NCBI GenBank assembly: GCA_023645945.1
Contig: JALAIB010000012.1
Coordinates: forward strand, 1 to 51,521
Direction of reading: 5' to 3'
DNA length: 51,521 bases
Source of the DNA: Diploschistes diacapsis
Taxonomy: Eukaryota
Shown here: piece by piece, positions 1 through 18,146 of the stretch
How the letters are laid out: each line of letters starts with the position of its first letter
How positions within the stretch are numbered: position 1 is the first letter of the stretch
Made by a program: the position numbers and the translations under genes
Notes under the pieces: model-generated
The model's database searches: none
What the model was told of the DNA's origin: nothing
Seen by the model: only the letters and a program-made list of their open reading frames with translations

Positions 1-63
1 GTAGGGGTGGGGGAATGGGTTTTTCGTTTCTGGTGGGCTCGGTACTGTGGGGTTTTCTACCAT
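1..63 (-). CDS. 5' end of a probable ATP-dependent DNA helicase CHL1/DDX11 (runs off the window)
   Basis: ATG at 63 reads MVENPTVPSPPETKNPFPHPY to the edge. F-x-HPY resembles the N-terminal F(H/Y)HPYxPYDIQ motif of fungal Chl1. An ACGCG element lies upstream at ~318. Only 21 codons are visible. Confidence 0.45.
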   Translation of the reverse strand, partial: MVENPTVPSPPETKNPFPHPY

Positions 64-699
64 GACAGGTCGGATGATTGCCAGGGGGATGTGGATGGAT
101 GGGAAGGGCGAGTGTGCCCTATGTCAAGCCACTTGAGCAGTTCGGTGCATGGAGAGAGTAGGATCTTTGTTGATTACTTTTAAGCACAAGAGGTACCCCT
201 TTACGTTTTAGTGCTGTCTTTTGGTTCGAGGAAAGTGCCCTGTCTATATGGTACATATTCTCTGACCAGGTTGCATTGCGCTATTGGCCTGTACTGGGGA
301 TTGAGCTATAATAATATACGCGCCCCTTTCTCGTCGTAACTGCCTGTCCTGCCGTAGGACCATCTGTCCATCTTACTACTATCTTCCTCGCCTTTCTTCT
401 TTGTTCGTCAAACAAGCTATGCAACTTCGTATAAAATCAACAGATAGCCAGTTATACTTTATACTCCTAATGCGATGCATCATCCGACTTACCCACCACG
501 CAAAGAAAAACCAAGGAAAGCCCGGAGTGCTTCAAAGCCGCCACTTTTGCTGTGTGTATCCTCTTCAAAAACCCCCATCCGCATCAATCTCGATGCTAAC
601 CGCGTAGACAAAAGCGGACACACATGACGTTACTATGATCTGGCCTGGATGCCATTTACTGTAATCTATAGGCCGCCTACCGACCCCCTTCCCCGGTAA

Positions 700-1163
700 C
701 TATCCACTAGAGCTCCAAGCGCACCTGCGAAGGTTGTTCCTGCTGGAGAGCTCTATCACACATGGTCGTGTGAGCGCGGCACGTGTGGCGATGTTCGATG
801 ATATCAAGAAATGCAGCGTCTTCCTGTCGTAATCTGGTTTGGGCTGGAGGGTATTGACGATGGTGCCTGTTTTGTCCATGTTTGGGTCTTCAATGCTTTG
901 ATTGTTTTTGGTACATTCTCCTAACCACTCTGTCTTACAGACTGTTTTCACGTTTCCCGCGTGGAATAATCCCCATTTGAGTATGATTTCCAAAAAAAAA
1001 ACCCCCCAAAAAAAGGTCTCTTGAGCGCTATTGAACACTGCCACGATTCCCCGTCCGGATATAGTGTTTCTATGGGATATACTACGGCTCTTCTCTCCCG
1101 AGTAGGGTATTGAGTCCGACTAGTCGTTGTAGAGCCGTTTGAATGGCGTTGAGAAGAAGGCAT
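700..1163 (-). pseudogene. Frameshifted small coding relic, weakly retropepsin/aspartyl-protease-like
   Basis: ORFs 948-1163 and 700-1044 join across an A10-C6-A7 homopolymer tract (992-1014). The C-terminal GTIVNTL...HFLISSNIATRAALTRPCVIEL loosely resembles retropepsin ends, but no intact DTG motif is visible. Confidence 0.25.
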
Positions 1164-2299
1164 AGTACGATGTGTAATATAAACCAGGACTTCGATTACA
1201 GATAGCTATGGCCATGCCGAAAGAAAATCACGAAAATTGCAGATATATAAAAGTGGTGACAAAGGAAGACCGAAAGCGTTGAGTAATTTTTTTCTACCTC
1301 CCGAATCTTGGATGACGCCGGCACACCTGGCTACTGGGAATTCCGGGAGGAGTAGACAACTATCTTGCTATATTTAAGGATTTCTCACACCGGAACAGAC
1401 TGCCAGCTACCCTGCCGTGGAATATTCCCATCTCATGAGCATACTTCCTTTGGGCGATGAGAATGGGCGAGCAATTTTCGTACAAATCTCGATCCACGAT
1501 TCTGTAATCGCGAAAACTCCTATGAGCCATCTTGTCTAAGTTTCAAGTTTTGACACCGCCTTGGCATGCTATGGTCATTCGGGGCAGGCTCACTACAATA
1601 TGTTGTGCCTCTCAAGCTTGATGCTTGTCTCCCTACATGACTACGCTAGGGCGTTTTTAAAATGTGTGGATGGAGGAAGGTCCTAGTAGCTAGCGAGTGG
1701 TACGTCTGGCTCTTGCGAAAGCTATTTCCTATTCCAGATGGGACGACGACACCTGGCTTTGTAGGAAACTTGGTATAGGGGATCCGGTCGTTCTTTTGTA
1801 CTGTGCCCTCTTATATAGTGAGGCGAAACTTCTTTCCCCAAAGGCTTCCGTCGGTCTATCGCTCTCTGTGGTATATCTGAGGGTGGTAGTAAGCCATCAC
1901 CATCTCTACTCAAGCTCTGCGAGGGTTTCCTGTCCATAACTTTCTGCCAGTTCCTTTCTCCTTTCGAATTCTCTAGGGGCATTCTGGGATTTCGAAATGC
2001 TGCCCATTTGCCTGTGAAGTAATGCTTGTTTGGAAGGTTGATGTGTTTGACGAAACCTACGTAGGTTGCGATGAACGGTTGCGTAACAGTCTGAATCCTT
2101 TGCGGCCTTTTCTGGCCTGTCTTTGATGTATTTCATAACTGGGGCTCAGCTTCTTCAGCCAAAGGCTAGTCAGTCTGGTCGAATCGTTCAGTCCCCACCT
2201 ATCTTATCTTCTTGATTGAATTTGAGACTTGTAGCGATTCCGGATTGGGATTTTAAACGCTAACCTGCTCTGATTATCCCTGTTCAATTGACCTCGAGC

Positions 2300-5200
2300 G
2301 GCCCTGATTCGAGTCGGAGAGACACACGCTTCTTGAACTGGTCGTGTCCTTTAGACACGGCTTGTAACGATTTAGATTGACGTTGCCAACGCAGTAGATG
2401 GTTAGAGCGTTGATATGCACCTCATCTGCCCGAACCTCGCTTTCCCGTCACGGTGCACTCCGGTCGACGCTGCCAGACGCTACCAAATGCGTCCACTAGG
2501 TACTCCTTGGAGTCCACGACTCCCTTGACGTTGTCACAAACCCAGTCTAACAGCAGAATTGGAAGGTTGAACTTGGAAACGTGTCTACAACTTCATTCAG
2601 CTTGCGACCTTTTCCCACATCGCGAAACATCCTGCAATCGAATCACGGTGCCACTATCAACCTGTGCTGATGTTTAAATTTTCTTATTGATTGTACGTAT
2701 CGGCATCACTGCAATCTTCGATTCCTCTGATTTCCCAGCAGATTCAGGTTCTTCCTGTTCCATTAGCTTTTGCGATATACCAAACAGTCTAAAAAAATAT
2801 CCTTTATGGCCTCGGCGATCGCGGAAGAAGTAGCGGAAGAAAGGAGAAGAGTCCACCAATCCTTGTATACTAGAATCACAGAAATTAAAGCGGGTCGAAT
2901 CAACAAACCTATGAAACATAATGAGTGTTGGTAGAGAGTTGAATGAGAAGAAGCCTGCCATTCTCCAGGAAATTGTTCTTCGGAAGACATTTCGATGGTT
3001 TTGTGAATACGCGCGAGTATATCTATCTCATCTTCCTTAAAAGCTCGGTCGAGTTAATTTACCATATGTAAACATCTGGAATTGCATCAGATGCAGGAAA
3101 TAGCCTCCCTCTTTCGTCCATATGGTCATTGGCATTAATCAATCTGTCCCCTTATAAGATCACCCGCAACTCTTCTATTGGCTCGAAATTTTCACCGAGC
3201 CCTGGATTTAGAGGTAGAAGGCTTTAGTAGACGCTTGGGAGTTTTAAAAGGAGAAGGGTCTTGCGACTCATCTGAAATGCCTTCCTCGAAAACTCTTTTA
3301 ACAGTCGCGCACACACGGGATGTGGATGCAGGTATAGATAATCCGCGACTTGTCCGCAGCACTCATGCTACACTTCCCTGTCGAGGCTTTTAGAGATTTG
3401 GCAGGATTCGCTCTCCTTATATATTCCAAGGATCGTATAAGGTGCAGCCTGGAGCGACAATCCTTTTGGTTGTAACAGCTACTTCATTCCATTATACGAC
3501 GGTCCTATATGGTGTACAAGTTTGGCGGCGAGTCGTAAATATGGTATCCCCCCTGCCTTTTAAAGACACATAACAAATAAGAAGCTCGTTGCTATCCGGG
3601 ACAATATTGATTCGAACAGAGTGGCATTCGTTCATCTGTGAATCAGGTTGCTGCAGTCTTCGAACTCTCGATTCGGTCTTGGTCCTTCAGCCAATGTGGA
3701 ATCAGCTTGCTCAGCCCGCTGCGAGCGGTAATGTCTTCGACAGCATCATGCTTGAGCGCTTATGGTACTCAAGCCTCGATAGAACCGACGCTTATCCCAT
3801 AGTTACAGACGAGGTAACGTATCTTCTTGTCTTTGATCGCAAACGTCCCTCCGGTAATAGAGAGGGTTCCGTAAAGGGCAAGACCTCAGAGACAAAGATT
3901 AGCGATGCTCATGAAAGGCAGATGATGCGGCACAACGGTCTAGGTTCCTCGTCTTTTTCAATTTGCCCCTTGTCGCTCTTCATAGTAGTAAAATCTATGC
4001 TGTTAAGGTGCGGGAGGCCCTCAGTATTGACCAAGCCGGGACATAGAGGGGATGATTGAGCGCGAAAACGTTTATGACATCTTCTGGCTAGTGTCAACGA
4101 CCTAGAGGCCATCCTCTCAATGCCACTCCTTCAAAATACGGTTGCAGTCGAACGCAGTAGAGTCTGTCACTTCCGTTTATACCGACTAGGTTTTCGCCGA
4201 TCTTGTGCTGATATGATCCCTACTGAAGTTCGAGATCTTGAGATTCAGATCTCTTAGTACAGTATAGCGGAGTGGCCTATGAAGAATATGAAGAGGCAAA
4301 AGCTCTCTTATAAAATGCCGTCTTTGGTCTTCTCTCCCGTGGTATTCTTAAGGTGGTTTCAGGCCGACATACTAATAGCTTTTTCTATTTTCTCGCCTCA
4401 GCAGTTCCATTGTCTGAGTGTGTCATAGCTTTTGCTTGCCTTTAAGCTTCTAGAGACTTTCTGTAGGGTTTTGATGTTCATTAAAGCCCCAATTTTTGCG
4501 GTATTCTCCACGAGTCTTTCTGGTTCTACCTCCTCTCTCTAAATCACGGAAAGTTTCTACATCGTTCTCTATGGTATAGAGGCGGTGGCATCTCTTAATT
4601 CCTTCCGTTTGTCCAATAGTCAGATTTTTGTGCAGCTCTTAGAAAATCTGTGTATTATAATCCATCGTCTTGTCGCCCATCGCACTGAGCCTTTGGTTGA
4701 CAGATAAAGCAACATAACCTTGAGCCATTAGTCGCAGATCATCGTGAGTAAAATCGAGCTAGGGTTCTGTACTCTCCCACGGTTTTGAGGTAAAGCTCGA
4801 TTTCGATCTGAAAATAGAGTTTTTACGCGATGAGTACGTAGAACCATCCCATCGGTAATTATTGGATTTGAAAGAATGATTTGATAAAGACACAATATAT
4901 CTAGAGCGGAGGGATGGCTAAAAGGAATTGGTGAGCTGAGTGAGACGAGAGCTTCCTAGGCTGCCAATTCTGAGCTATTATTTCTTGCTGTACGTTTTCT
5001 GGAAGCTATTGTGCTAGATACTCCTGGGTATCTGCAATTGCCGTTGGTGGTGAGCATCTGTTCAGGGTTTATTCGAGGGTTTATTCCTCTAGAGGGTCTA
5101 TCACAGGCAGAATTTATGTAAAGGGGGCTAGGGCCCTCACTATACCAGAGTTGCGAATTTGGAGGCCTAGTCCATCTTGCAATTCTCTTATAGCGCTATG

Positions 5201-6700
5201 GGTAAGATTGGTATTCTGATATTATAAAACCCCTCATCTCCTTATCCTCCTGCGTACAAGCACCTTGGGAATTGAAGAAAATCAGCCTGACGTATTCCCC
5301 GAGCGCCTCATTGATTTCTCTGTGAGTCGGATCCCAGTCGAAGACGAAGGTGACATAACTACCTAGGGACGGGGAGTTCATTAACAATATCTAGTTACCG
5401 TATGTTGTCGCTGGGAGCAAACTCTTTCTACTGCATTCCTGTTAGGACCAATTTCTTTGTTATAAAGCTCTTCATCGGAAACTCCTTTCCGTATAACTAT
5501 GTGGTAGCTTGAAAGCGAACAGACTAGACTGTCTCGTAACACATTCCTTCTGGAGCCAGGTTTGAAATCTGATTTTTTATATGATCATGTCCAGGACCCA
5601 CTGAAAATGGCCGGCTTTCCCCGTGCTCGTCAATTCTGCATATTAGACTGAATCCTCTGTGTCATCCCCAAAATCCTGCTTAAGATCAACTCCAGCCTCA
5701 GCTTCAACCCGAAGCTTTGGGTTTAGCATAATACTGTGATAACTGGAAATAGTTCAAAGAACTACCTCCACCACTTGTTCCATTTCTGCAAGACAAGTTC
5801 AAACCCCTCCGCTGCTTTGAACATGCATTTTTGCAACTCAGTAACTATTGCATGAAGGTATACTCATAGCTGAGTGAAAGAGAGGGTACACGCATTCTGT
5901 AGCCTGTCTTTTCAGAAGTCCATCAGGATCTTGTATCATCATGCTGCGCTGTTCGCTGATTTAGTGATCAGGTCATTCGGCTTAAAATAATCGAATCTTT
6001 CAGTAAACGATTTTCGAATCTCACGAGGCCTATGCCCATTACAGCGATGCGTTCCATCTCTGATATATCTCGTATACCCCTTTGAAGAAGAGATCTGATC
6101 TCTCTTCCTCCTTAACCTTGTGTACTCCTCGTGTAAATGCCGACTCTCCCTCCTGTATATTTGCAAAACTTGCTCCCTTCTCCAATCTCAACAACAAACC
6201 TGTGAAATTGTCAAGTTTATCGGGTGGCTCCGTGCCATTGCCTGAAGTCGAAGGTGCGATAGTAGATTATCCTATCACAGGAGCTTCCTGGCATCAACAT
6301 TCCCTGATGCTTTCGTTGTCGGTGAGGGGGCATGAATATCATAGTTTTGTTGAAATATTCCGCGCTTGTTCTAAAGCGAGTAGTTCGCTTAGATGGCTAA
6401 TTTTGGGGAAATTCATGCCCGCACTTCTCTTGTCTCTTGCAGGCGCCACTCTACTCACAGCCTCTATTCGGTTCGATCCATCAGCCCACTTTCGCTTCAT
6501 AGTAATGTTAACGTCCACGAAGCTTAAGGGTATTGAGACTAGAGTAATGGACGGTATCCTCAGAAATGAGCGTTTTGTTTGGGCCAAAGTTCTTGATCTC
6601 ATCCTCTTGTTCGGTCCTGTTTGGGTTTGCCGTTAGGACTATACTCACATGTGTATACAACACGGAGCCGTTATTGAGAAATCCTAACATATTCTTAGTG
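2300..6700 (-). pseudogene. One or more decayed multi-exon genes of unknown function
   Basis: Long protein-like minus-strand frames with sparse stops, e.g. ~4918-4425 (..PWESTEP*LDFTHDDLRLMAQGYVALSVNQRL..TQIF*ELHKNL..ESL*KLK), 5196-5387, VYLHAIVTELQKCMFKAAEGFELVLQKMEQVVE near 5770-5860, and LDRAFKEDEIDILARIHKTIEMSSEEQFPGEW near 3050-2960. No family recognised. Confidence 0.45.
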
Positions 6701-7399
6701 TTGTTGGAAGATAACTCGATTATCCGCCTTCAGAAGCTCTACATCAATGCTCCAGTGCCATCGGCGACATTTTTACTACTCACCAAGCCACGTCAAAATT
6801 TATAGGAGGTGTATATATCTCAACGACTGCAGCTCCACTGCCCAGGCGTGTGCCCGGAGGCCATGAAATGCCATTGCAAGCCAGACATCAACTATCCTAT
6901 TTAGCGGTGAGATTAGTGAGCGTAAATATTTTCTATCCAAGATACAGGAAAGGTCAAAAAGCCAAGAGAAATTATATGAGAACTACCAGAGCAGCCGAGC
7001 AGCAATAGTCCAGGGGCCAAAGTGTACTATGGCTGCTGCCCTAAGTTTCATCTAACCGTTGGGTACCTGCGTATTGTATGATATGCTTGCACAATAATTC
7101 CTTAGTTATGTGGTGGAATCATTCAGAAAGGCGTCTGCGGTTCCTGCCGCAACCAACTTTGAAAGTGACTTACTTAAATCATAATATGCAGTGGTCTCAT
7201 GTCCTCCATTTCCTTAGCTGGCCACATTTCAAATTCTTTCGACTCATTGACCGTCCTCTGGGTTCTGGGGACTCCCACGTGATTAATGATCGAGGCTCTA
7301 AAGTGCCCCACCTTCATGGTCTTTTCGTTATTCAAAAAGTGCTGGCACAAAATCCAAAGCGAAATCTTATCGCGAGAAGTGAGTGTGGATAGTCTGAGC

Positions 7400-9780
7400 A
7401 AAAATCCTACTTATGCAAAGCCATGCCAAGCGATATATCGTCATAGTCGCTGACGCCGCCATGGCAGCGACCTCGGCGCCAGCTGCCAGCCAGCAATCCG
7501 TAGTAGCTACCCTTAGCTACTGCAATCTTCCCCTATCTAACTATGCTCATGCCTCATAAGCAATGTAGCTAGTCCGCCCTTTCAGCGAAAAGTGATCCCC
7601 CACGTTCCTTACTCGATATTTCTTCCAATAGCACAGAAGCCCCGACACAGGCCAAATACTTTCAAGTTTTAGTTCACACTTGGCTCCTTTATAGAGACCA
7701 GTAACATATTCTCGTCCATGCTCCTTTTCTCTGGATCCCTTATCGTCCTGTCTCCATAGCTCCATATTGCCTCGCTTCATACTCAGCTACGGTCGGTTGG
7801 ATGTCTTCGTAGCTCTCTTTCGGATATCCACATGTCGTCCGTAGCGTCGCATTCTGGCCATCCCACAAGGTACTGTGTACTCATCAAATCCAGTACACTT
7901 CACTATTCAGATCCATTGAACTAATCTACTAAAGGTGTCCTGGGAATCCTAGAAGACGTTATACGCATTTCATAAATAAGATCGAACGATGGTTGAGATT
8001 AAATATGTCTCAGTTGATATTGACTTCAAAATAGGTATCTTCTCCGATGGCTTGTTGGCTGCAAGACTGGCTGATTGATTCTACCAGCTATTGGTACCGT
8101 ATTATTCTGGTATCTTGTGTTTCGTTTGCCTTGATGGGCATGTACCTTTTCAAGGAATCTGACTTCGGAAGCTAGAGACACATTATCGGCGACTGACGCC
8201 AGAAGAAAGCGCAGATGCGTCGATGTCGAAGCTCCTTTAGTTTAAGATACCGCAGTAATATTTGCTCAGCCTCAACTATGTTGTGTTACTCTAAAACCAG
8301 GTATGAAGTCGGAGGTCTTCAGCCTGGTCTTGTATTTCAGTGCATAGTGGTACGCAACTTATCGCCCGCAGTCCTGGGCAAAGAGAACAAGGTTCAGAAA
8401 GTCGCCTAGCAAATGCTGTAGGGAAATCCATCCCGTTCATATAGCTTTCTTAATGCTGCTCTTAGATGATCCGATCTCTCTGGTACGGAGTCGCCATCTC
8501 ACTCTGTATCGAGTTTCTCCTTCTGAGTGTCTTTTTGGGTAGTTGTTCACACTGACTAAGAGTCGCAGAGCCCCAATCATGCTTGTTGATTATATTTGGC
8601 ACATGTATGGTTCGTAGAATATTAGTAGTATACAGCTGGTTTCAGGCCTGGCAGTCTTGCCCACGGTTCTGCAGGTAGCAGGCGAGCACCTGAAGAGTTT
8701 GTGAATCGTCATTGCTGTGTTTACTCTTTCTTAACAGATTAGACCTATACTAAGCGTTTTTCATCCATTAAACCTAGCTTGCCAGTTGTAGCTTGTTGCA
8801 TTTGCCCTCTATTGTGTATCTATCCAAACTTGGGCCCATTAGTTGGATTGAGCAGTACTAGTGTGATTTCTCTTTCTTTCTGTAAAGTAGCTTTGCGCTT
8901 AGTGATTAGTTCTTCCAGGAATTTATTTCAGTGGTTCAAGTAGTTAATTGTAATCCTGTCTTGACCGGTGGGAGAACAGCTTCTTAACTGCTCAAAAGCA
9001 TTATCTCGTTCCTTGGCCCTCACATGAATTATCCACCCCAGGAGCAATTGCATGAATGCTCAGCACTTGTCGTACCTAATATTGATGGATTCATACATGG
9101 AAACTACTAGCAACCCTGAATTCGCGCAATCTCTAAGATAATGGCCCTTCCTTAACGAACTAGTAGCGGTTCCCCAGTAACTAGAAAAGCGGCTCTTGTG
9201 CCGCCTGATCATTATCGATAGCCAAAAGCCCTTCCGTTACTAATTTATGGCGGGTCTTGAAACAACTGCTCCTCAGAACTGGACTAAGGTTAGATTGGTG
9301 GGTTTAAATACGTTCAAAAAGACTGACTGTTTAGTGGATGTTCCAAATCCTTGGTTTGTTCCCTGCGTGAATTTATCCAGAACAAAGCAAACTTCTTATT
9401 GGAGATCTTGGTATTTTTAGTAGGCTTCTCTTCATGCTCTAATAGCTAGCGTATGCAAACGCTTTTTGTCTTTAATTCATTCTTCTATGGTTCCTTTTGC
9501 GTGCGTGAACGTCCTCTTCTTTTCCAAAGCAAATTGTTGGTAGGCCTATATGAGTCTACCTCTAGACGACAATGGTCAGTTTATTATTTTAGCCAGAAAT
9601 ATAGCCTGTCTTACGCGGAAGCATATTCTTGAAGTCATTCTTGATGCTTTGTATCTTTGTATTGAGCGCCGGTTTCGTTTAGTGTTAGTCCATTTAGCTT
9701 CCTATACTCCATGTAGCGCCGGTGCAGTTATACCATTGTCTTAATATTGGGTAAACCATCAAAATAAAAATTGCCTCGCG
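7400..9780 (-). mobile_element. Highly degenerate Ty3/gypsy (chromovirus-like) pol relic with chromodomain, PPT-like tract and possible 3' LTR start
   Basis: Minus-strand 7878-7762 reads TQYLVGWPECDATDDMWISERELR/(frameshift)DIQPTVAEYEARQ, a chromodomain pattern (YLVxW...D.W.SE.EL...V.EYE). Downstream is a purine-rich stretch and then TGTTAC at 7706. Upstream are faint RT/RNaseH-like words (ERDNAFEQLR, LRTIHVPNIIN). Confidence 0.5.
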
Positions 9781-9926
9781 CCTTTCCCATCGCAGTGACA
9801 AGAGAGCGTAGAATTTTCCTCTTTCAAGGTTTCTCTAGGGTGGTTGTAGTTGAAGTTCCTCATAGCTCCTTACCTAGATAGGCGTAAAAATTAATAATAA
9901 TAATGCGTCCAAATATTTTAAACTTA

Positions 9927-11197
9927 CTACTTTACCCGCTTCCGCTTCTGCTGGTCTACATAATCCGGATCCTTCTCCTCGGACTTCTCATCGTCCCAGT
10001 CCGGATCCTTCTCCTCCTCGGACTTCTCATCGTCCCAGTCCTCTCGTGCTTCCCAATTCACTTCGTCTTCAGGTATAATTTCCGCACCAGGCGAGGGCAC
10101 TCTCTTCTGCTTCCTTGTGCCAGGCTTCATGACCAGGTTCTCTCGAACATTTGCTCGACGATCCACTTCCTTCTGCCGCGCAAATAACGTCCTCTTGCCC
10201 AAGGCCCTGTATGATATGAAGATCGGCTCGAGGAATGCATCAGGGTCGGAAAGGACAGATTTGATGGCAGCGAAGTCGCGTAATTGGAGGCGGAGGCCTT
10301 GCTCTTCGTCCGCCAGAACATTGCCATCTGAATCAACTAAGTCCTGTTCAATCATATGTTAACAGCTAACCTACTACAAGGAGGAGATGGATCCTTGCCT
10401 GATGCACCGTCCTTACACAGTCAAAATCATCGATCCCATCAGCCCCGGTCGTAATGACTGGACGCCAGACAGATAAGCTCGCCCCCTTGTCACGGTAATT
10501 CAAGTCCAGACAAACAACTGCCCGTATCTCCCCGTTCGAATCATTCACATAGTCCCATGCGAGACGGTCCAAACCCTTTGAATACTGTGAGAAGGCCACC
10601 TCTATCAAAACACCTGGCCATGTCGCCTCCGAGTGCCAAAAGCTTACGTCCGGAGAGTGTCTGTCGACATGTCCATCGTCATCAGGCGGGAACTTAAGAT
10701 TCGGAGAGCCGTAGGGTAGCACCTCCTTCGCGAAAGCTTGACTCTTTGTATTGCCACCCACCCGATACTGCCTCAATTGGCTGTCGATCTCCCCTCCGAG
10801 GTACCACACGCAGATTTCATGTGTAACCGAGTTCATTCGAATGACGAATCGCTCGACTTGAGAAAAGTAGTCGTACCTGTCAAGCACACACATAATCAAT
10901 CAAAGTAGATAGGGTAAGCGATGCGCGAGGGAGTGTATACCGAACTTTGTCCTGGAACCACCCCCACAACGACTCATTGAGCTGCAGTGCGTTGAATAAT
11001 TCGTCGAGAACCGGGAGATGAAATGATCTCCGCTCTATATTGTGCGACGATCCCACGTGCCGGCCCGAGCGCCAGCAATGGAGGAACTGGACGATTCTCT
11101 GGACCTGTGAAGATGGCTTCTTTTCGTCGGTCGGCGGAGGGGTGATAGGCGCTTCGCAGAAGCTCTCTGGAGGAGTGATTTCGGGGTGATCTGACAT
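9927..11197 (-). CDS. Putative PD-(D/E)XK (Uma2/restriction-endonuclease-fold) nuclease, 3 exons, 383 aa
   Basis: Exons 11197-10941, 10876-10399 and 10343-9927 splice in frame (GT-AG 64-nt intron, GC-AG 55-nt intron; total 1152 nt). Motifs: IRM..THE, HSPDVSF, PGVLIEVAFSQ, LDRLAWDY, IRAVVCLDL. Acidic repeat and basic KKRKRVK C-terminal NLS-like tail. Confidence 0.8.
9964..10038. repeat. Tandem duplication (36 nt + 39 nt copies) encoding DWDDEKSEE(E)KDP in the nuclease tail
   Basis: tccggatccttctcctcggacttctcatcgtcccag at 9964-9999 repeats at 10000-10038 with only a 3-nt indel. Confidence 0.95.
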
Positions 11198-11719
11198 ATC
11201 GAGTGTTATTTATTGACGCCTTCTGTTGCTAGAAGCGAATCGATCGGTGTTGTTCGACAGCTTGGTTGTTTCGGTTAAGAAATGGAATTGATTCAGAGCG
11301 GGGTGTTGAGGTGAATACTGGTAGACTAATTGTTATAGAATTCGTCCGTTCTCACGATTTCAGGATTTCAGGAAAAACAAAGAATAGAAGAACAAAGAAT
11401 AGACAATCACGGTTGAGAGCGGCAAAATGTGATTTCTTCGCACAGCCCAACCTGCAAAACTTTCTTGCTCTAGTATAGCTGAATCTCTCGTATTCTGGTT
11501 TCCCACTTCGATTGTTTCAGCACTCTGTTCTCCATCATTGTATGTTACCCTGTCTGATCTGTTTATCTGTTTGATTAGAACGCCATTGAATCGTGGCTTA
11601 TTTCTCGATCAAGCCAGCTTTTTTGCTATAGAATTGTCTTTCACAAATGTACTTTGCCTCATTCAGCTGTCCTGGTCATGACTTGAGCAAGAGAGTTATT
11701 ATGTATAGGTATGCCAAGA

Positions 11720-12750
11720 CTCTATATTTGTAATTTACCCTCGTTCCTTTGTCCCGCTTTTAGATCAGAAATAAAATCTTTTCCTATCCTTATACTCGCG
11801 TTTGAACGTAATGCGCCGCCCGTAAGCTTGATTCGTTTGTCTCTGTTAAAGGTTAGTCTATTACTGCTGGCCGGTCTGACTCCAGTGCTCGTCTGTTTCC
11901 CGGTCTTGACGCAGGTTTCTCCGGCTCTACAGATACATTTAGGAACTCTAAAACCCATATAGAGGATATTAACCTTTTATGTCCCCGGGTTTGTCTCGGC
12001 TTCTGGCCATGTTTTGCGCTCGTCCGTACTACGCGAATTTAAGTTAAGACTTTAGCATTAAGATCTCTCTCTGTTGCCCTTTTTGAGAAAGTGAACATGA
12101 TATTGCCTGAAAGCGATCGAGCTAAACCGGCGCGGCCCCGAGCCATAACTAGGCCGATAATGAGCAGAGAAACCGGCTTTGACAGGCTGGTTTATCCGGG
12201 GAGTAGGTAGAGGAGCTGGCGCGGGAACAGGAGAATCAGAGGCAGCGACAGCCGCAGATCCATGTCGAGCCGTTCCAGGAGACAAGCCGGGTGAGCCGCG
12301 GAGAGAGTGAGCTATTTTTGTACTGCCTAGGACTTTAGCTATCTTTTTTAAGCTTTTAGCTTGACCCGCTAGGTATCATTAGTAACCTGAGACTCCCACA
12401 GCTACAGCCTCTTGAATCGGACGTGGTTCTAGGGCTATAAATTATATTAGTTATCATCCTTAGATTGAAGTGGGCCTATTGGCCCTATAAGTATTCTCAC
12501 GGGCCTGGTACCGTTTCCAGTCCGCTTCCTAGGTGCCAAACTATCTAAAGTCTTTTAAACAAAGGCCACATTTCGGTCTTAAGCCGTCTTGGACTCGAGC
12601 ATGAGCTCTCGGAGCATCGGCGTGAACAGTCCGGGTACCTATCAAGCATGCGCTCTCATTTGGCCTCAACGAGAATGGCCTTGCTCGGTCTAAAACGGGC
12701 CTTCGTCGCAGACACGTCGCAGGTCTTATAGTCTTGTTCAGTATATTTGC
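11720..12750 (-). mobile_element. RIP-like degenerate retrotransposon gag-like relic
   Basis: Minus frames read KDFR*FGT*EADWKRYQARENTYRAN..LII*FIALEPRPIQEAV (retrotransposon-gag-like spacing), followed by a Pro/Ala-rich stretch and a Gln-rich frame whose stops are nearly all TAA/TAG (SQTGQQ**TNL*QRQTNQ). The sequence is TpA-rich. Confidence 0.4.
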
Positions 12751-13333
12751 CATTTAGGCCAGTAATTGCTCCCATAGTTACGCATCAAGCCCAGGGCTTT
12801 TATGTGAGGTTGTCGGAGCAGTGCTACTGCTCCACACAAGGCTCGTAAGTGTGAGAAACAGATGTTTTTCGCATGCCCAGCCGCGGTAAACCCATTGTAA
12901 AAGAGAAATACTTCTGTTGACATTAAGTGTCAATCAAAATGAACTCATGATAGCGGTCAATCTTTCCATCACACTTCGTGATCTGCTTATCAAATTGCGG
13001 CAGCAACTCTCAATATCGCCTTTGGTGGATCTTCCCACATGAGATCACAGATAAGTGGCGCTAGAAAACACTTTCAATAGCCACAACATAGCAGTATAAC
13101 GCAACGGGCTAGATAGAGGTGCTATTGGAACCTGAAATTTTGAAAATTAATTTCTCAGCTTCTCGCATCTAAACAGAAGAGGGCAGAGGTTTGTTGTCGG
13201 CCTAAGGATTATCAAGAGGCTCGATGGCTAGGGATATTGAGCTTTGTCTGAATGTTTGGGTTAGGGACCCAGCTCCTGCCCACTCTTCTTCGTAGTCTCT
13301 CTCTGTAATGCCAGCTGTTTGAGGCTGAAGCCA

Positions 13334-15685
13334 TTAGTCGTTCTCTTGTCGATATTCGATAGTAGTGAATTGAGTTTCGGTGTCTTCCATAGGCGTGGCT
13401 AGCCAAACACTGGCACTTCCTGAGGGAACGACTTCATAGCTGCTGGACTCTCCGATCAAACGTTGATAGTAAGAGTTCACATTTGAAACCCCCCGCAATG
13501 AGGTACAGTCGTCCTGATTTGCGATATCTCGAGAGAGCTTGACAAGCCACGAGAGCTGTAAGTTGATCAGTGCCTGTAAAAGGTCTCTGAAACAGAGATA
13601 TCGATGCTTATGACACCACAACATCCTATTAGCCTCTCTTCTAGCATAATCTTCAGTGTTTACAAGTAGCCGCTTATACTCATCGGTATTTTGGAAGGCC
13701 TCATGATAGTGGGACAGTAAGCGTGAAAGAGATTTGAAGCATCTGAGCTTACAGTCCCGCTCCTAATTCCGCCACCAGAAGCTGGATGTGTGATTTAAAT
13801 CGTGCATATACGTAAAGTATCCTGTTATCGTAGCTAATAATATATACTTGAAGTTCTCAAGATCTCTTCCACTTTCGCAGTGTAAAGTGCCTCACCCCTC
13901 TTAGAAAAGATATGACACGCTCTTGTAAGCTTTTGCACAACAAGCTTGAATAGCAATTCTCTTTGGTCCATGTGTACCGTTTGCAGTCCCTAAGCTATCT
14001 ATGTGGTCAGAGGCTTGAGAGTTTCACTGTCCTCTGCTGGCGTTCCTGTTACCGGAGCGAAGAAGCACTCTTTTATCCACAAGCCTATGTGTAACTTCAA
14101 AAATAAGACATGAAAGTTTGCATATTAACCAAGTGTTCCATTCGATATCCAGATTATGGACGATGGAGATGGAGATGGAACACGTTTCTCAGAATCTTTT
14201 TTCAAACCTCACAATATTCTGTAAGTCGGTACTTCTTTATATCACATCAGGTCATTTAATCGTAGATTCGTGGGTTCCTCGCGATCCTTGATCTGGTAGC
14301 GGTTTCCTCGATTATCCTGCCGGAGACAGTCTTGTTTTCTTAAAGTGCCACTGTATTGATTCCTTGAGAGTTGGTGGCCCAGATATGGTAGTTTACTATA
14401 GTGGGCTTGGAATTACCAGACCGAGACTGTCCATAAGTAATAGCGCCGTCAGCGGAGAACCTAGTACCTCTTCCCTTTCGAGCAAACCCATAACAAGGCT
14501 TGCAGTAACCAAGGTTCTAACGTTCTTGAAGCGCCTATAAATTTTGAAAGCTCTGCAACCGAAGGTACAAAGTGCATTCGCCATGGGCTTACCATATTCA
14601 CAGGCAGTCAATATATATACGGATGCGTGAGAATACATAGGAGCAAAATAATCATGCCATGGACCTGCAAAAGACGTGAAGTGTCTGTACACCAACGTTG
14701 TCAGGTTGTCCGAAAGAAAGATTAGGGGAAATTTGGAAAGTGTGAGGCTTATGTAGTGCACACGCGCGGAGCAGATATTGAATTCTGGCTTCTCGATGTG
14801 AATATGCCTTTACCCGCTTGCCGCCCATGGTGAATGTTTTGCGCTGTACATTAGTAGCCAGGTGAATCCAATGTTCTTGTCAGTTCTCGACTAGAAGTCT
14901 GGTGTAACGCGAATCGCGGTTTTGACTACTTTATACGTTGAGCGAATACTTCGAGTAGATTGGTATCGGAATGCTTATTCGAGCTTCATCTGTAGCGAGC
15001 TCGGGAAGACCAAGCAGGTTTGATAGTAAGCGAGATAAAAAAGCAGCAGATCAGAACTAAAAGTAGATGGTGCCTTTGCTAAGGTTTGGGGTTGAAGGAT
15101 TAACATGTTTTCAGATGATCGTATTTGTAACAAACTGCAATGCCGGCCTACACCTTGGTCAATTCAAGGTAGCGAGAATCCTGGCCCAACAGCAATTGTA
15201 TTGATAGTTGTAGGGTCCAATAAACAAGCGATTCTGAGAAGACCAATCTGATAGATATTCGGTGAGATTGCCATTGCTTGGATAAGGTGAGATAGCAGGT
15301 TTTGAAAAGATAAATAGAAACTGTGAATATCTATGGTAGAACTTGCCTGTATTACGGAAGGGTTGACTCCGCGGATTCTAAGCATCCTCAAGTCTTGGGC
15401 CAGAATATTGTAAGAAAACGGACGTCTTATCAACATCTCCAAAGCGAAGTATTTCTATGCATCGCAGAGGAGCTGAGGAACAGATCATCACAAAGCTGGG
15501 ATGTGTAACAAAGAACACCACCTACTGCTCCTCCACAGACAAAAGGCACTGCCATTGCCATTGATGAGTGTTTCGTAGCCTTGATCTTCTAGCGTAATGT
15601 GTAAATTGCCATGAATGAACTGCAGCGTTCGAAGCTTCCTGTGCTTCTTTTCCCACGCAGTAAGGGTCTCCACTGTGCTCATCAT
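13334..15685 (-). pseudogene. Long decayed gene, faintly ankyrin/helical-repeat-like
   Basis: ORFs 15488-15685, 15164-15442 and 14396-14761 (and 13334-13624) share one reading frame, interrupted by scattered stops. Words such as LRMLRIRGVNPS and DKNIGFTWLLMYSAKH weakly resemble ankyrin repeats. Confidence 0.5.
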
Positions 15686-15935
15686 TTATATCTACGGCTT
15701 CGTCTGTAGCCTCGTACCTCGCTACTGCTTTAAGTGCGGCTACAAGATATGCAGTTTTGTTCGCGATGCCACTTGCGCTGCATCTTTCCTCCTAGAGGGA
15801 ACAGTCCCCCCATAGCATTTTGTTGCGACAATATAACCCAGCAGCGACTTGACGGTATAGTTTTCGAAGTCCCTGTCCCCATGACTTAAGTTGTCATTGA
15901 AAAGGTCTATCTCACAGGGGACTGACGCTAATCAG

Positions 15936-16279
15936 GTTCCTTTCAATCCCAACAGCGGGGTGAGCAAGAATTGGAGCTGCTCGAGGGAGAGATCGATAAA
16001 GGTTTGTGGCGGCAAGCCGATCAAACGAAAATGGTTCGGAAACCACTCAATCCGAATAAGATACGGTTCTCACAGGGCTCTAAAAAGCCTGGAGCTAAGG
16101 AGATAAGCGAGTGACTGCCAGCACGCAAGGGGTTCCTGGAGAGAATCAGATCTATAGCACAGCGTATTGAAACTGCGTTGCTCTACAAAGATCCCCATGT
16201 TGAGCAAGTCATATATGGATATGGAACTCAGATCGCAGCATCCAAGTAGATCAAGATCGATGTGGCATTGGGAGATTGA
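15936..16279 (+). pseudogene. Plus-strand exon relic of unknown protein
   Basis: After a branch/acceptor (ACTGAC..GCTAATCAG, 15921-15935) the frame reads SFQSQQRGEQELELLEGEIDKGLWRQ...EISE*LPARKGFLERIRSIAQRIETALLYKDPHVEQVIYGYGTQIAASK*IKIDVALGD*. Confidence 0.35.
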
Positions 16280-16350
16280 TATCATCTATTGGGTCTCCGG
16301 GTCTATCCAAACAACACGTAGGTGATATCCAAAAATTGATTGGCCCGTGC

Positions 16351-18146
16351 TTAGGAAATGGTTATGGATGGATCGTTTTCCGTAAAGACTTTGTATAGAC
16401 GCTTGCTTGCCGCTGGCCCGATCCTTGAATCCTCATTACCTGAAGTCGAGAGTTTCTGTATGGGTGTCAGCATCATATTCGGTTATCAATCGAGTGTTTT
16501 GATTGGACTTGCAGGTACATTCTCAAGCACTAGCGGACCATGCTGCTTGAAGGCTCCAACTAGGCTCACGATGTTCGGATATCGCGAAGCAATCCCGTGA
16601 GCCTCCTTATCCGTGATACGGGTGAGCTGCTTCAGTATTTTCAAGTAGGTGTCCTCATTGTTTTTTCCTGAATGCACCTGGCCCGTCTCCATGCAGAAGG
16701 ATGCATCACCCTCATATACTCTGTGAAGGATTAGAAGTTTGTAGCAATCTGGGTTGTGACCGCTCACCCATGTCGAATCAGAGAGATCTGCTGTGTGAAA
16801 CCCAGTATATATTCTGCCGTTTCGGTTGGATTCAGCGTTTGCTGCACCTTGCACCTATGCGTGACTTGTAGTTCGAGCAGTGCATCTTCCACCGCCTCTT
16901 CGTCTACCTGAACTTCCGTTTTTTTCCGTCGTCTTGACTGAGTTTGTTGCTGCTGGGCTTGATCCTCCATTCGACGGACTGCAGCTTGGTAGGCTCTGTT
17001 CTGAGCGCTCCTACTTCGCCTTATCCACGCTTCTAGGCCTTCGATCAAATAGATTACTTGACACTTCGGATACAGGGTTTTGGTCCTGTTAAAGTGCATT
17101 TCAATATTCTCGTCCTCCTCGTCTGCGCCAGACACCAGGTTGCAAAACTGTTCCCCTGACAAAAGGCACATAGCAAAATTGTTCTCATCGACTCTGGCGG
17201 CACGAACCCAGTGACTAAGCTCTTCGTCAAAGTCTCTCGATACCCTCTGTTTCCACTTCACGAGACCCGGAATCGAACTTTCGAATACTTTGACCTCCGC
17301 GTTGGCCCTAGCCAGTAGCTCTCGGACCTGATTATTGATGCTTTTGCCCTCGATCGATTTGGGTAAGTACACGATCATTTCCGGGGTTGTGATCTTCTTG
17401 TCAACCTTTGATTTGTTGACTTCAGCTAGATCGGCGGCTTTTTTTTTCTCCTGCACCCTCAGCTCCTTTTCTTGTTTCCTGTTCTCTTTCTCAGCTTCCC
17501 TCGCGATCCTTCTCTTTTCTTTTTCAGCTTCTTTGGCCCTTATCCTCTCCTGCTTTGCGCCATCTTTTTCTGTTGCTCGCAATTCTCGTTCTGCGCTTGT
17601 CAGACGTTGCCTTTTCTTCGCTGTAGCAGAGCTAGACTGTTCGACCGAGTTATGGCGATTGCCATCAATGTCTTTTGCTGACAGCTTACGCTTTGGGGAA
17701 ACCCTGCCCGTCGAAGCTCGTTTAGAAGACACTTGAGTGGTTATTTCCGCAAGTATTGCAGCAGTCCGTGTCGAGAAACTGGCGCAGTTTCGCACCAAAG
17801 TCCCAGGTTCAGGTAAGTTGTCCTCGGATTCCTCTGGGTCGCTATTAGGGAACTTGAAGGCAGATTTAGAGAGTCTTCTCTTCCTGACGTGGTTGCGATC
17901 GGTTTCTCTTGGAGAAGAAGTGAAGATAATTGGATCTATCGATCGATCCTTTGTCGCTGCCGGTCCATAGCCCTTACTGCAGTAACCTCCGTTCGTTGTA
18001 GGCTTCGATTGCGCAGGCTGATGCGCGTGAGTTGTGCCTCTAGCAGACAACGTAAAAGAGCCTCCGAGTGAAGGAGAGTCTCGTTCTTCAGCGTCAGAGC
18101 TGCACAAATCCACTACCTCGCGCAATTTCCCACCTCTTTCAGCCAT
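16351..18146 (-). CDS. EME1: Crossover junction endonuclease EME1/MMS4 (ERCC4-like domain), 3 exons
   Basis: Charged coiled coil, then VNKSKVDKKITTPEMIV, VIYLIEGL, VEDALLELQV, SFCMETGQV, YLKILKQL and C-terminal RIGPAASKRLYKVF. Introns near 16767-16721 and ~16513-16456; stop at 16351. Confidence 0.92.

Follow-up and report, generated by a model that had tools for sequence, protein, structure and literature searches.

A predicted Uma2-fold nuclease relative from Diploschistes diacapsis, retained amid decayed DNA and perhaps engaged in genetic conflict

The only recognisable gene in roughly 16 kb of decayed DNA from the lichen-forming Lecanoromycete Diploschistes diacapsis encodes an intact protein of 383 amino acids, which structural models assign to the Uma2/DUF820 fold of the PD-(D/E)XK nucleases. 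The gene lies in the window, by which we mean the whole 51,521-nucleotide stretch analysed (all of contig C224 of a 29-Mb, 4361-contig assembly). On balance, and with caution, we favour a joint reading in which it is an accessory birth-and-death gene for a stand-alone protein of a Pezizomycotina family, a tightly dosed nuclear nuclease acting in genetic conflict and not mobile by itself; of these steps, the nuclear location, nuclease activity, dosage and conflict are inferred.

Gene structure and predicted fold

The gene occupies the minus strand, with its ATG at 11197, three exons and no internal stop. Its features, in window coordinates, are as follows.

10941..11197, minus strand: exon 1, with the ATG at 11197, a low-confidence N-terminus carrying TPPES and TPPPT and then the first helices; it ends DKV-R
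11162..11176, minus strand: TPPES, a match to the Cdc4/Fbw7 phosphodegron consensus; a second TPP lies at 11143-11129
10877..10940, minus strand: intron 1, GT-AG, 64 nt, exactly missing from contig L034
10399..10876, minus strand: exon 2, the predicted Uma2-fold nuclease core (H105, PD161-162, E178, SQ182-183, K186)
10645..10659, minus strand: HSPDV, with the predicted first catalytic acid (D in 103/103 rows)
10585..10605, minus strand: IEVAFSQ, with the predicted second catalytic acid and SQ (E 101/102, S 85/102, Q 88/102)
10344..10398, minus strand: intron 2, non-canonical GC-AG, 55 nt, exactly missing from L034
9927..10343, minus strand: exon 3, which completes the fold and adds long helices, a basic+SP motif, an acidic tail and the stop
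10089..10115, minus strand: RKQKRVPSP, the form taken in the window by an NLS-like family motif, a basic cluster with [ST]P after it
9972..10041, minus strand: in-frame tandem duplication of 39 nt, private to the window allele; L034 and contigs of runs X2-X5 skip it

A preliminary description, made from the letters alone, had proposed an intact spliced gene of this length, and the comparative evidence bears it out. The alignment of contig L034 spans 11299-9709 and lacks precisely both predicted introns, and the annotated proteins of Lasallia and Chlorociboria have their exon joins at the same residues. L034 is most simply the spliced transcript of a relative, although it may instead be a processed copy; it would thus attest expression at most for a relative. 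The donor of intron 2 is GC in the window, GT in the related loci L035 and L037, and apparently GC in P0004. All four coding indels relative to L034 are in frame, and the gene carries no RIP skew (TpA/ApT 0.53). The C-terminus reads QQKRKRVK rather than the KKRKRVK first reported, and this tail is not kept in named homologues. A public model of the gene, 281 amino acids long, uses a different donor for the 10398-10344 intron and starts at the second methionine.

The suspicion of a Uma2-like fold was well founded. The predicted model of the window protein from its second methionine onward (pLDDT 89, 76 sequences) found its best match class in 1wdj (TT1808/DUF820), with Z 13.3 and rmsd 2.1 over 132 aligned residues, while the model of the homologue P0007 (pLDDT 88, 103 sequences) reached Z 13.7 and rmsd 2.6 over 170. 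The three top structural neighbours, at Z 12.7-13.3, are all Uma2/DUF820, the first enzyme of another type follows at Z 7.6, and Foldseek gave E 1.6e-5. Both models contain the alpha-beta-beta-beta-alpha-beta core of PD-(D/E)XK enzymes in agreement with solved members, and on these models the window protein is a Uma2/DUF820-fold relative of such nucleases. Sequence profiles barely register this kinship: Pfam returned no family for the three window exons, its Uma2 profile (PF05685) matched only 2/103 relatives, both at E>=0.0013 (best E 0.0013), and a search of PDB sequences with the family profile gave no meaningful match. In the protein atlas the nearest named cluster is 23% Uma2 at a score of 0.91.

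Both acidic motifs named at the outset, PD in HSPDV (10659-10645) and IEVAFSQ (10605-10585), are present. His is kept in 101/102 relatives, and K/R stands in 94/101 at column 185, three places past the Q. The lysine usual at E+2 is absent, S or A being found there; candidate substitutes, in P0007 numbering, are Q182 (88/102) and K185 (K/R 94/101). At the helix position that we take to be the Uma2 lysine site, Leu occupies 93/103 rows. The conserved D/E/H/Q/K core, set against the absence of the usual lysine, makes catalysis likely but inferred, and it may differ or have been lost given that Leu. A distant paralogue in the same genome (G000:C252:2368-3000) has a lysine in the helix after EVAWSQ, where the main family has Leu.

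The Uma2/DUF820/TT1808 proteins (PF05685; PDB 1wdj, 3ot2, 9y1l, 6okh) share their fold with the window family at Z 12.7-13.7 and rmsd 2.1-2.6, and the two groups have the helix-1 His, PD and E in common. Unlike Uma2, the window gene is spliced and has a TPPxS N-terminus, a long C-terminal extension and an ExxxSQ motif, falls below the Pfam profile and presumably lacks the Uma2 lysine. In PMC3424549, Uma2/DUF820 is listed as a bacterial family with predicted endonuclease function and links to mobile contexts.

The locus and its flanking DNA

From 16764 on the window carries ordinary genes (EME1/ERCC4, MFS, PAP2, LRR, arrestin, ZPR1, DBR1 and a UBA2-like gene). Over 1-16400 no other recognisable gene was found, as the preliminary description had stated: the stop-as-X frames scanned (over 7400-12800 those of the minus strand) and the seven longest other open frames gave no Pfam family at E<0.04. 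Apart from weak unrelated matches, chromo at E 0.078 was all that the flank frames yielded, and searches for tRNA and Rfam families gave no match. The pieces around the gene are listed below.

7343..7882, minus strand: decayed chromovirus-type 3' end of 540 bp, with chromodomain, 3' region and LTR-like start
7890..9708, no strand assigned: decayed DNA earlier called 'pol', no match in searches, TpA/ApT 0.99
9709..9926, minus strand: ancestral 3' flank, 198/218 identical to L034; homology breaks at 9709
11198..11336, minus strand: ancestral 5' flank, 93/102 identical to L034 over 11198-11299; homology breaks at 11336
11333..11671, plus strand: putative copied host intergenic DNA of 339 bp with two internal deletions, outside the nuclease unit
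11690..12800, no strand assigned: decayed DNA earlier called 'gag', no match, mild RIP-like skew (TpA/ApT 1.27)
9799..9806 and 11688..11695, plus strand: 8-bp direct repeat at chance level, not a target-site duplication

The gene had been placed between a gag-like relic at 11720-12750 and a pol/chromodomain-like relic at 9780-7760. The chromodomain stands, since the relic at 7878-7792 matches three own-genome copies at 52-57% (E 1e-6 to 5e-5), and its 3' region is common to the window, C335 and C968. However, the pol-like part at 9780-7890 has no match, and its first bases, 9780-9709, are the gene's own 3' flank (82/90 identical to L034). Nor did the gag-like stretch find a match in Pfam, in 34 own-genome loci or in four related copies. 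In tblastx against those 34 integrase/chromo loci, matches were confined to the chromodomain and the sequence following it; gag and pol (RT/RH/IN) gave no match there or in Pfam, and heavy decay could hide them. DNA alignments of the two stretches with the four related copies stayed at shuffle level, the single 105-aa open frame among them has no homologue in the protein collection, and a search for a 5' LTR partner in 9600-16700 scored 32 (shuffles: mean 31, maximum 47). Short chromovirus 3'-end fragments also lie beside host genes elsewhere in the genome, at C615 (about 1860-2300; L066), C968 (L064), C3336 (L067) and C335 (L016); they carry the integrase tail, chromodomain and 3' region, and their mutual similarity stops 100-190 bases upstream of the chromodomain.

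Relatives define a different set of boundaries. Past 9709, L034 and run X3 carry the same continuation, and past 11336, X3 and X4 share another; both are missing from the window, and none of 13 metagenome loci shares the window flanks beyond 9709-11299. The segment at 11333-11671, which begins 140 nt upstream of the nuclease start, matches G000:C53:3074-3461 at 77% over 397 columns, has two copies in the genome and corresponds to the gap between genes for ATP-citrate lyase and a DHO-dehydrogenase-family protein. Captured host DNA is the preferred interpretation of it. We rejected a small transposon, as the counterpart on C53 takes up the greater part of an ordinary intergenic gap and the segment occurs in two copies without terminal repeats. 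The DHO-dehydrogenase-family gene at the source (C53:1991-2977) sits beside the ATP-citrate lyase pair and SEN54. The flank breaks in relatives and the copied C53 DNA show that the gene is the older resident of a 1.6-kb island and that unrelated DNA has overwritten its original flanks piecemeal.

These boundaries bear directly on the proposal that 9799-11695 is a self-mobile nuclease unit whose clean insertion separated the gag and pol of a gypsy element. In its favour, the genuine 3' end of a chromovirus lies 1.8 kb downstream in the same orientation, the interval is framed by an 8-bp repeat, and two diverged copies in run X3, with RIP-like differences, hint at duplication elsewhere. Yet such repeats are as frequent as chance predicts (2 8-mers observed, 2.6 expected), and the downstream one lies inside the conserved 3' flank, which can be followed in L034 over another 90 bases. 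At four boundary pairs no terminal inverted repeat of >=8 bases was found, the true ancestral ends being missing from the window. Only one copy of the gene exists as DNA in its own genome, a lower bound given the fragmented assembly and the search used. Relatives' flanks break at 9709 and 11336, not at 9799 and 11695, with no gag, pol or 5' LTR detected and host intergenic DNA apparently captured at 11333-11671. The flanks thus belong largely to unrelated sources (captured intergenic DNA, decayed DNA and the 540-bp chromovirus end), and the gene holds the same position in run X2, largely as a single-copy gene at a syntenic position would. A self-mobile unit within one gypsy element is therefore largely refuted, and we regard it as highly improbable.

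Family, relatives and selection

At E<=0.001 (HMMER) the family comprises 1052 clusters at 50% identity, with named members in the Leotio-, Dothideo- and Lecanoromycetes (Pezizomycotina) and unnamed ascomycete clusters as atlas neighbours, which agrees with the earlier idea of an expanded, poorly characterised fungal family. It is large, unnamed and without a Pfam model, and we found neither a description of it nor a function for it in the literature searched, although Zhang et al. 2016 or its supplements may already include it. Six family loci were found in the own genome, 25-46% identical in the core and one with stops. Gene neighbours differ at every locus examined (CDC23/DUF7025, DUF7924, SET/PDDEXK_12/DUF3632, DUF7587/IBR) and are, at own and metagenome loci, mostly of accessory type (unnamed DUF, ankyrin, SET, PDDEXK_12), with no recurrent partner gene among those examined. 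PDDEXK_12 is a different family and has no BLASTP similarity to that of the window gene.

Two motifs recur across the family. An N-terminal TPPx[ST] is found in 43/64 full-length relatives (shuffles 1.0, maximum 4), and 37/65 long relatives (shuffles 1.6) have a basic cluster with [ST]P behind it. A signal-like stretch occurs in 0/64 full-length members. The Cdc4/Fbw7 phosphodegron consensus is given as S/TPPXS/T/E/D in PMC5069553, which also treats TPPxS degrons as typical of short-lived nuclear regulators. By motif match the TPPxS is degron-like, and an architecture with degron-like and NLS-like elements is apparently kept across the family. At three loci that are 96-98% identical (L035:9492 against L037:1811 and L038:4885), sequence 200 nt upstream of the homologous gene's ATG has been replaced, much as in the window; the replacement is AT-rich in L037 and L038. 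L035 has a late, premature stop codon absent from L037, and a PDDEXK_12 gene 3 kb upstream.

Run X2 comes from a close relative (191/256 contigs at >=95% identity). Its depth covers 30/30 window bins, EME1 included, with no single piece spanning the locus; depth in all bins implies that the arrangement was inherited, and it indicates that the gene is already at this locus in X2, with the same flanks and EME1. One X2 form tentatively skips 8843-10062 (1220 nt), which would remove the last ~44 codons; the short side of its 8842-10063 joint has only 29 letters, and it is backed by a fall in depth to ~25 in two bins. X2 apparently holds two forms of the region, with several deletions of 0.4-1.2 kb and an extra piece of 691 nt; they differ at window 8843-10062, 9312-9319, 11798-12221 and 15407-16109. 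Run X3 holds two copies over 9709-11336, at ~80% and 92% identity and ending at the same base. Among the differences of the X3 copies, 163/259 are C>T or G>A, RIP-like. In X3, X4 and X5 the gene with its introns and flanks is covered at about 80-92%; 24-26/30 bins are uncovered, EME1 included apart from tiny pieces, but these runs were selected by means of the gene itself, and their coverage holes prove nothing. A tree of 54 rows chosen from the top matches joins the window, Umbilicariales and Chlorociboria in a 100/100 clade, and identity across classes is 60-64%; with neither identity nor clade calibrated against core genes, horizontal transfer of the gene is a lead only.

The preliminary description held that the gene is either under selection or younger than the decay around it, inserted into one gypsy element. 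Selection is the part that stood. Against L034 the gene has dS 0.077 and dN 0.101 (flanks differ at 28/319 sites), and the overall dN/dS of 1.3 does not differ from 1 (P 0.37). However, the suggested dN/dS comparison does reveal constraint in the core: sites invariant in outgroups have changed at 9/163 and variable ones at 56/190 (P 2e-9), with dN 0.024 at 127 outgroup-invariant and 0.14 at 231 variable codons. The core is, by this contrast, under purifying selection, and variable codons change faster than synonymous sites do (P 0.035; 0.017 when the flanks are included).

Change is concentrated on the window lineage. The 69 amino-acid differences comprise 44 that arose in the window, 3 that arose in L034 and 22 of ambiguous origin; the tree end branches measure 0.41 and 0.012. 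Polarised changes, window to L034, are 57:9 nonsynonymous and 5:6 synonymous (Fisher P 0.005), the synonymous polarisation resting on an outgroup at dS 1.1-1.2. Placing 9 synonymous changes on the window branch gives P 0.09 and placing all 18 gives a ratio of ~1, so that, with that placement, the branch ratio lies anywhere between about 1 and about 3. The other clade evolves under ordinary constraint (dN 0.10, dS 0.60). The window allele has also altered the highly conserved sites P101N, G208C and F247L, a pattern that decay would also produce. These comparisons show a shift specific to this lineage, with the core retained, and they favour positive selection without proving it.

Possible roles and comparison with known systems

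In the account that we favour, the protein would enter the nucleus through its basic motif and nick or cut DNA using a divalent metal, its dose being held low through TPPxS phosphorylation and SCF-Cdc4 turnover. The nuclease would act in genetic conflict, either by attacking invading DNA or in the role of a killer or self/non-self factor, and such conflict would explain the retained frame together with fast change outside the core. The gene itself would change locus only when larger rearrangements or elements carry it along passively.

Several other explanations must be weighed against this account. Constraint may mostly have been lost in this lineage after the promoter region was overwritten, so recently that the gene is still intact. 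An overall dN/dS indistinguishable from 1, changes at conserved sites, the replaced upstream flank 140 nt before the ATG, the truncated form in X2, the stop in L035 and the lack of any RNA seen from this species would all be expected of such early decay. We nevertheless consider it unlikely, given that invariant codons are still constrained, variable codons run above the synonymous rate, every indel is in frame with no stop and the gene is free of RIP skew. A catalytically altered pseudo-nuclease, binding DNA or chromatin as a short-lived regulator, would account for the missing lysine at E+2, the Leu at the presumed Uma2 lysine position and degrons of a kind typical of short-lived nuclear regulators. 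However, D, E, H, Q and K/R are kept at ~30% identity, as expected of an active site, and this reading seems very unlikely to us.

The gene could be a single-gene killer or meiotic driver of the Spok kind, damaging DNA in spores or nuclei that lack it while degron turnover protects carriers. The nuclease fold, the NLS-like and degron-like motifs, and a patchy, fast-evolving, multi-locus family with loss alleles would suit a driver, and PMC9972908 reports that Spok killing requires a restriction-like nuclease domain. Nonetheless, the 383 amino acids form one fold and hold no resistance domain or Pfam match, and the neighbours include no recurring partner gene, which leaves a driver of this kind distinctly unlikely. 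We give similarly little credence to a broader proposal, that of an unrecognised class of single-gene selfish nucleases passing between lichen, soil and wood fungi, limiting themselves through a Cdc4 phosphodegron and promoting flank replacement and host-DNA capture through their own breaks, with the window allele in an arms race. If it were true, killing would be limited by a phosphodegron and not by a kinase or an antidote gene.

Known systems offer partial parallels. Spok genes of Podospora are accessory ascomycete genes with a restriction-like nuclease targeting DNA (PMC9972908), and the window gene would resemble them in this. Spok proteins have three domains including a C-terminal kinase-like resistance domain, whereas in our model the single fold is followed by no more than a pair of long helices and an acidic tail. 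PMC5289972 presents the Crinkler/CR-REase effectors as eukaryotic domains with a restriction-endonuclease fold that act in the nucleus and are connected with transposons and conflict. The window family shares the eukaryotic setting of this fold and, as proposed here, conflict and nuclear action. Unlike Crinkler (CRN) proteins, the window protein has no ubiquitin-like/LXLFLAK header, no NTPase or kinase partner domain and no signal-like stretch family-wide, its N-terminus being a low-confidence TPP-rich tail without a Pfam match.

The gene now provides a testable handle on a family of >1000 clusters without a Pfam model, with a fold assigned and one allele that has undergone a sharp burst of amino-acid change. 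If its proteins are active and limited by a degron, they would form a compact conflict system beside Spok and CRN-type nucleases and could help to explain unstable accessory regions in fungal genomes. According to PMC13486527, lichen Starships can leave behind a lone intact gene where the DNA around it has degraded, and the homologues of the window gene resemble Starship cargo in their company of unnamed DUF, ankyrin, SET and PDDEXK_12 genes. Over 1-16500 of a contig that begins at base 1, the Pfam frames scanned showed neither a captain recombinase nor an element boundary. Elsewhere in the window, decayed gene fragments at 2287-2628 and 12819-13375 have single relatives on G000:C4045 and C3891, and a stop-free frame at 6064-6636 on the plus strand, without a Pfam match, runs to 190 amino acids against 178 for the longest in 30 shuffles.
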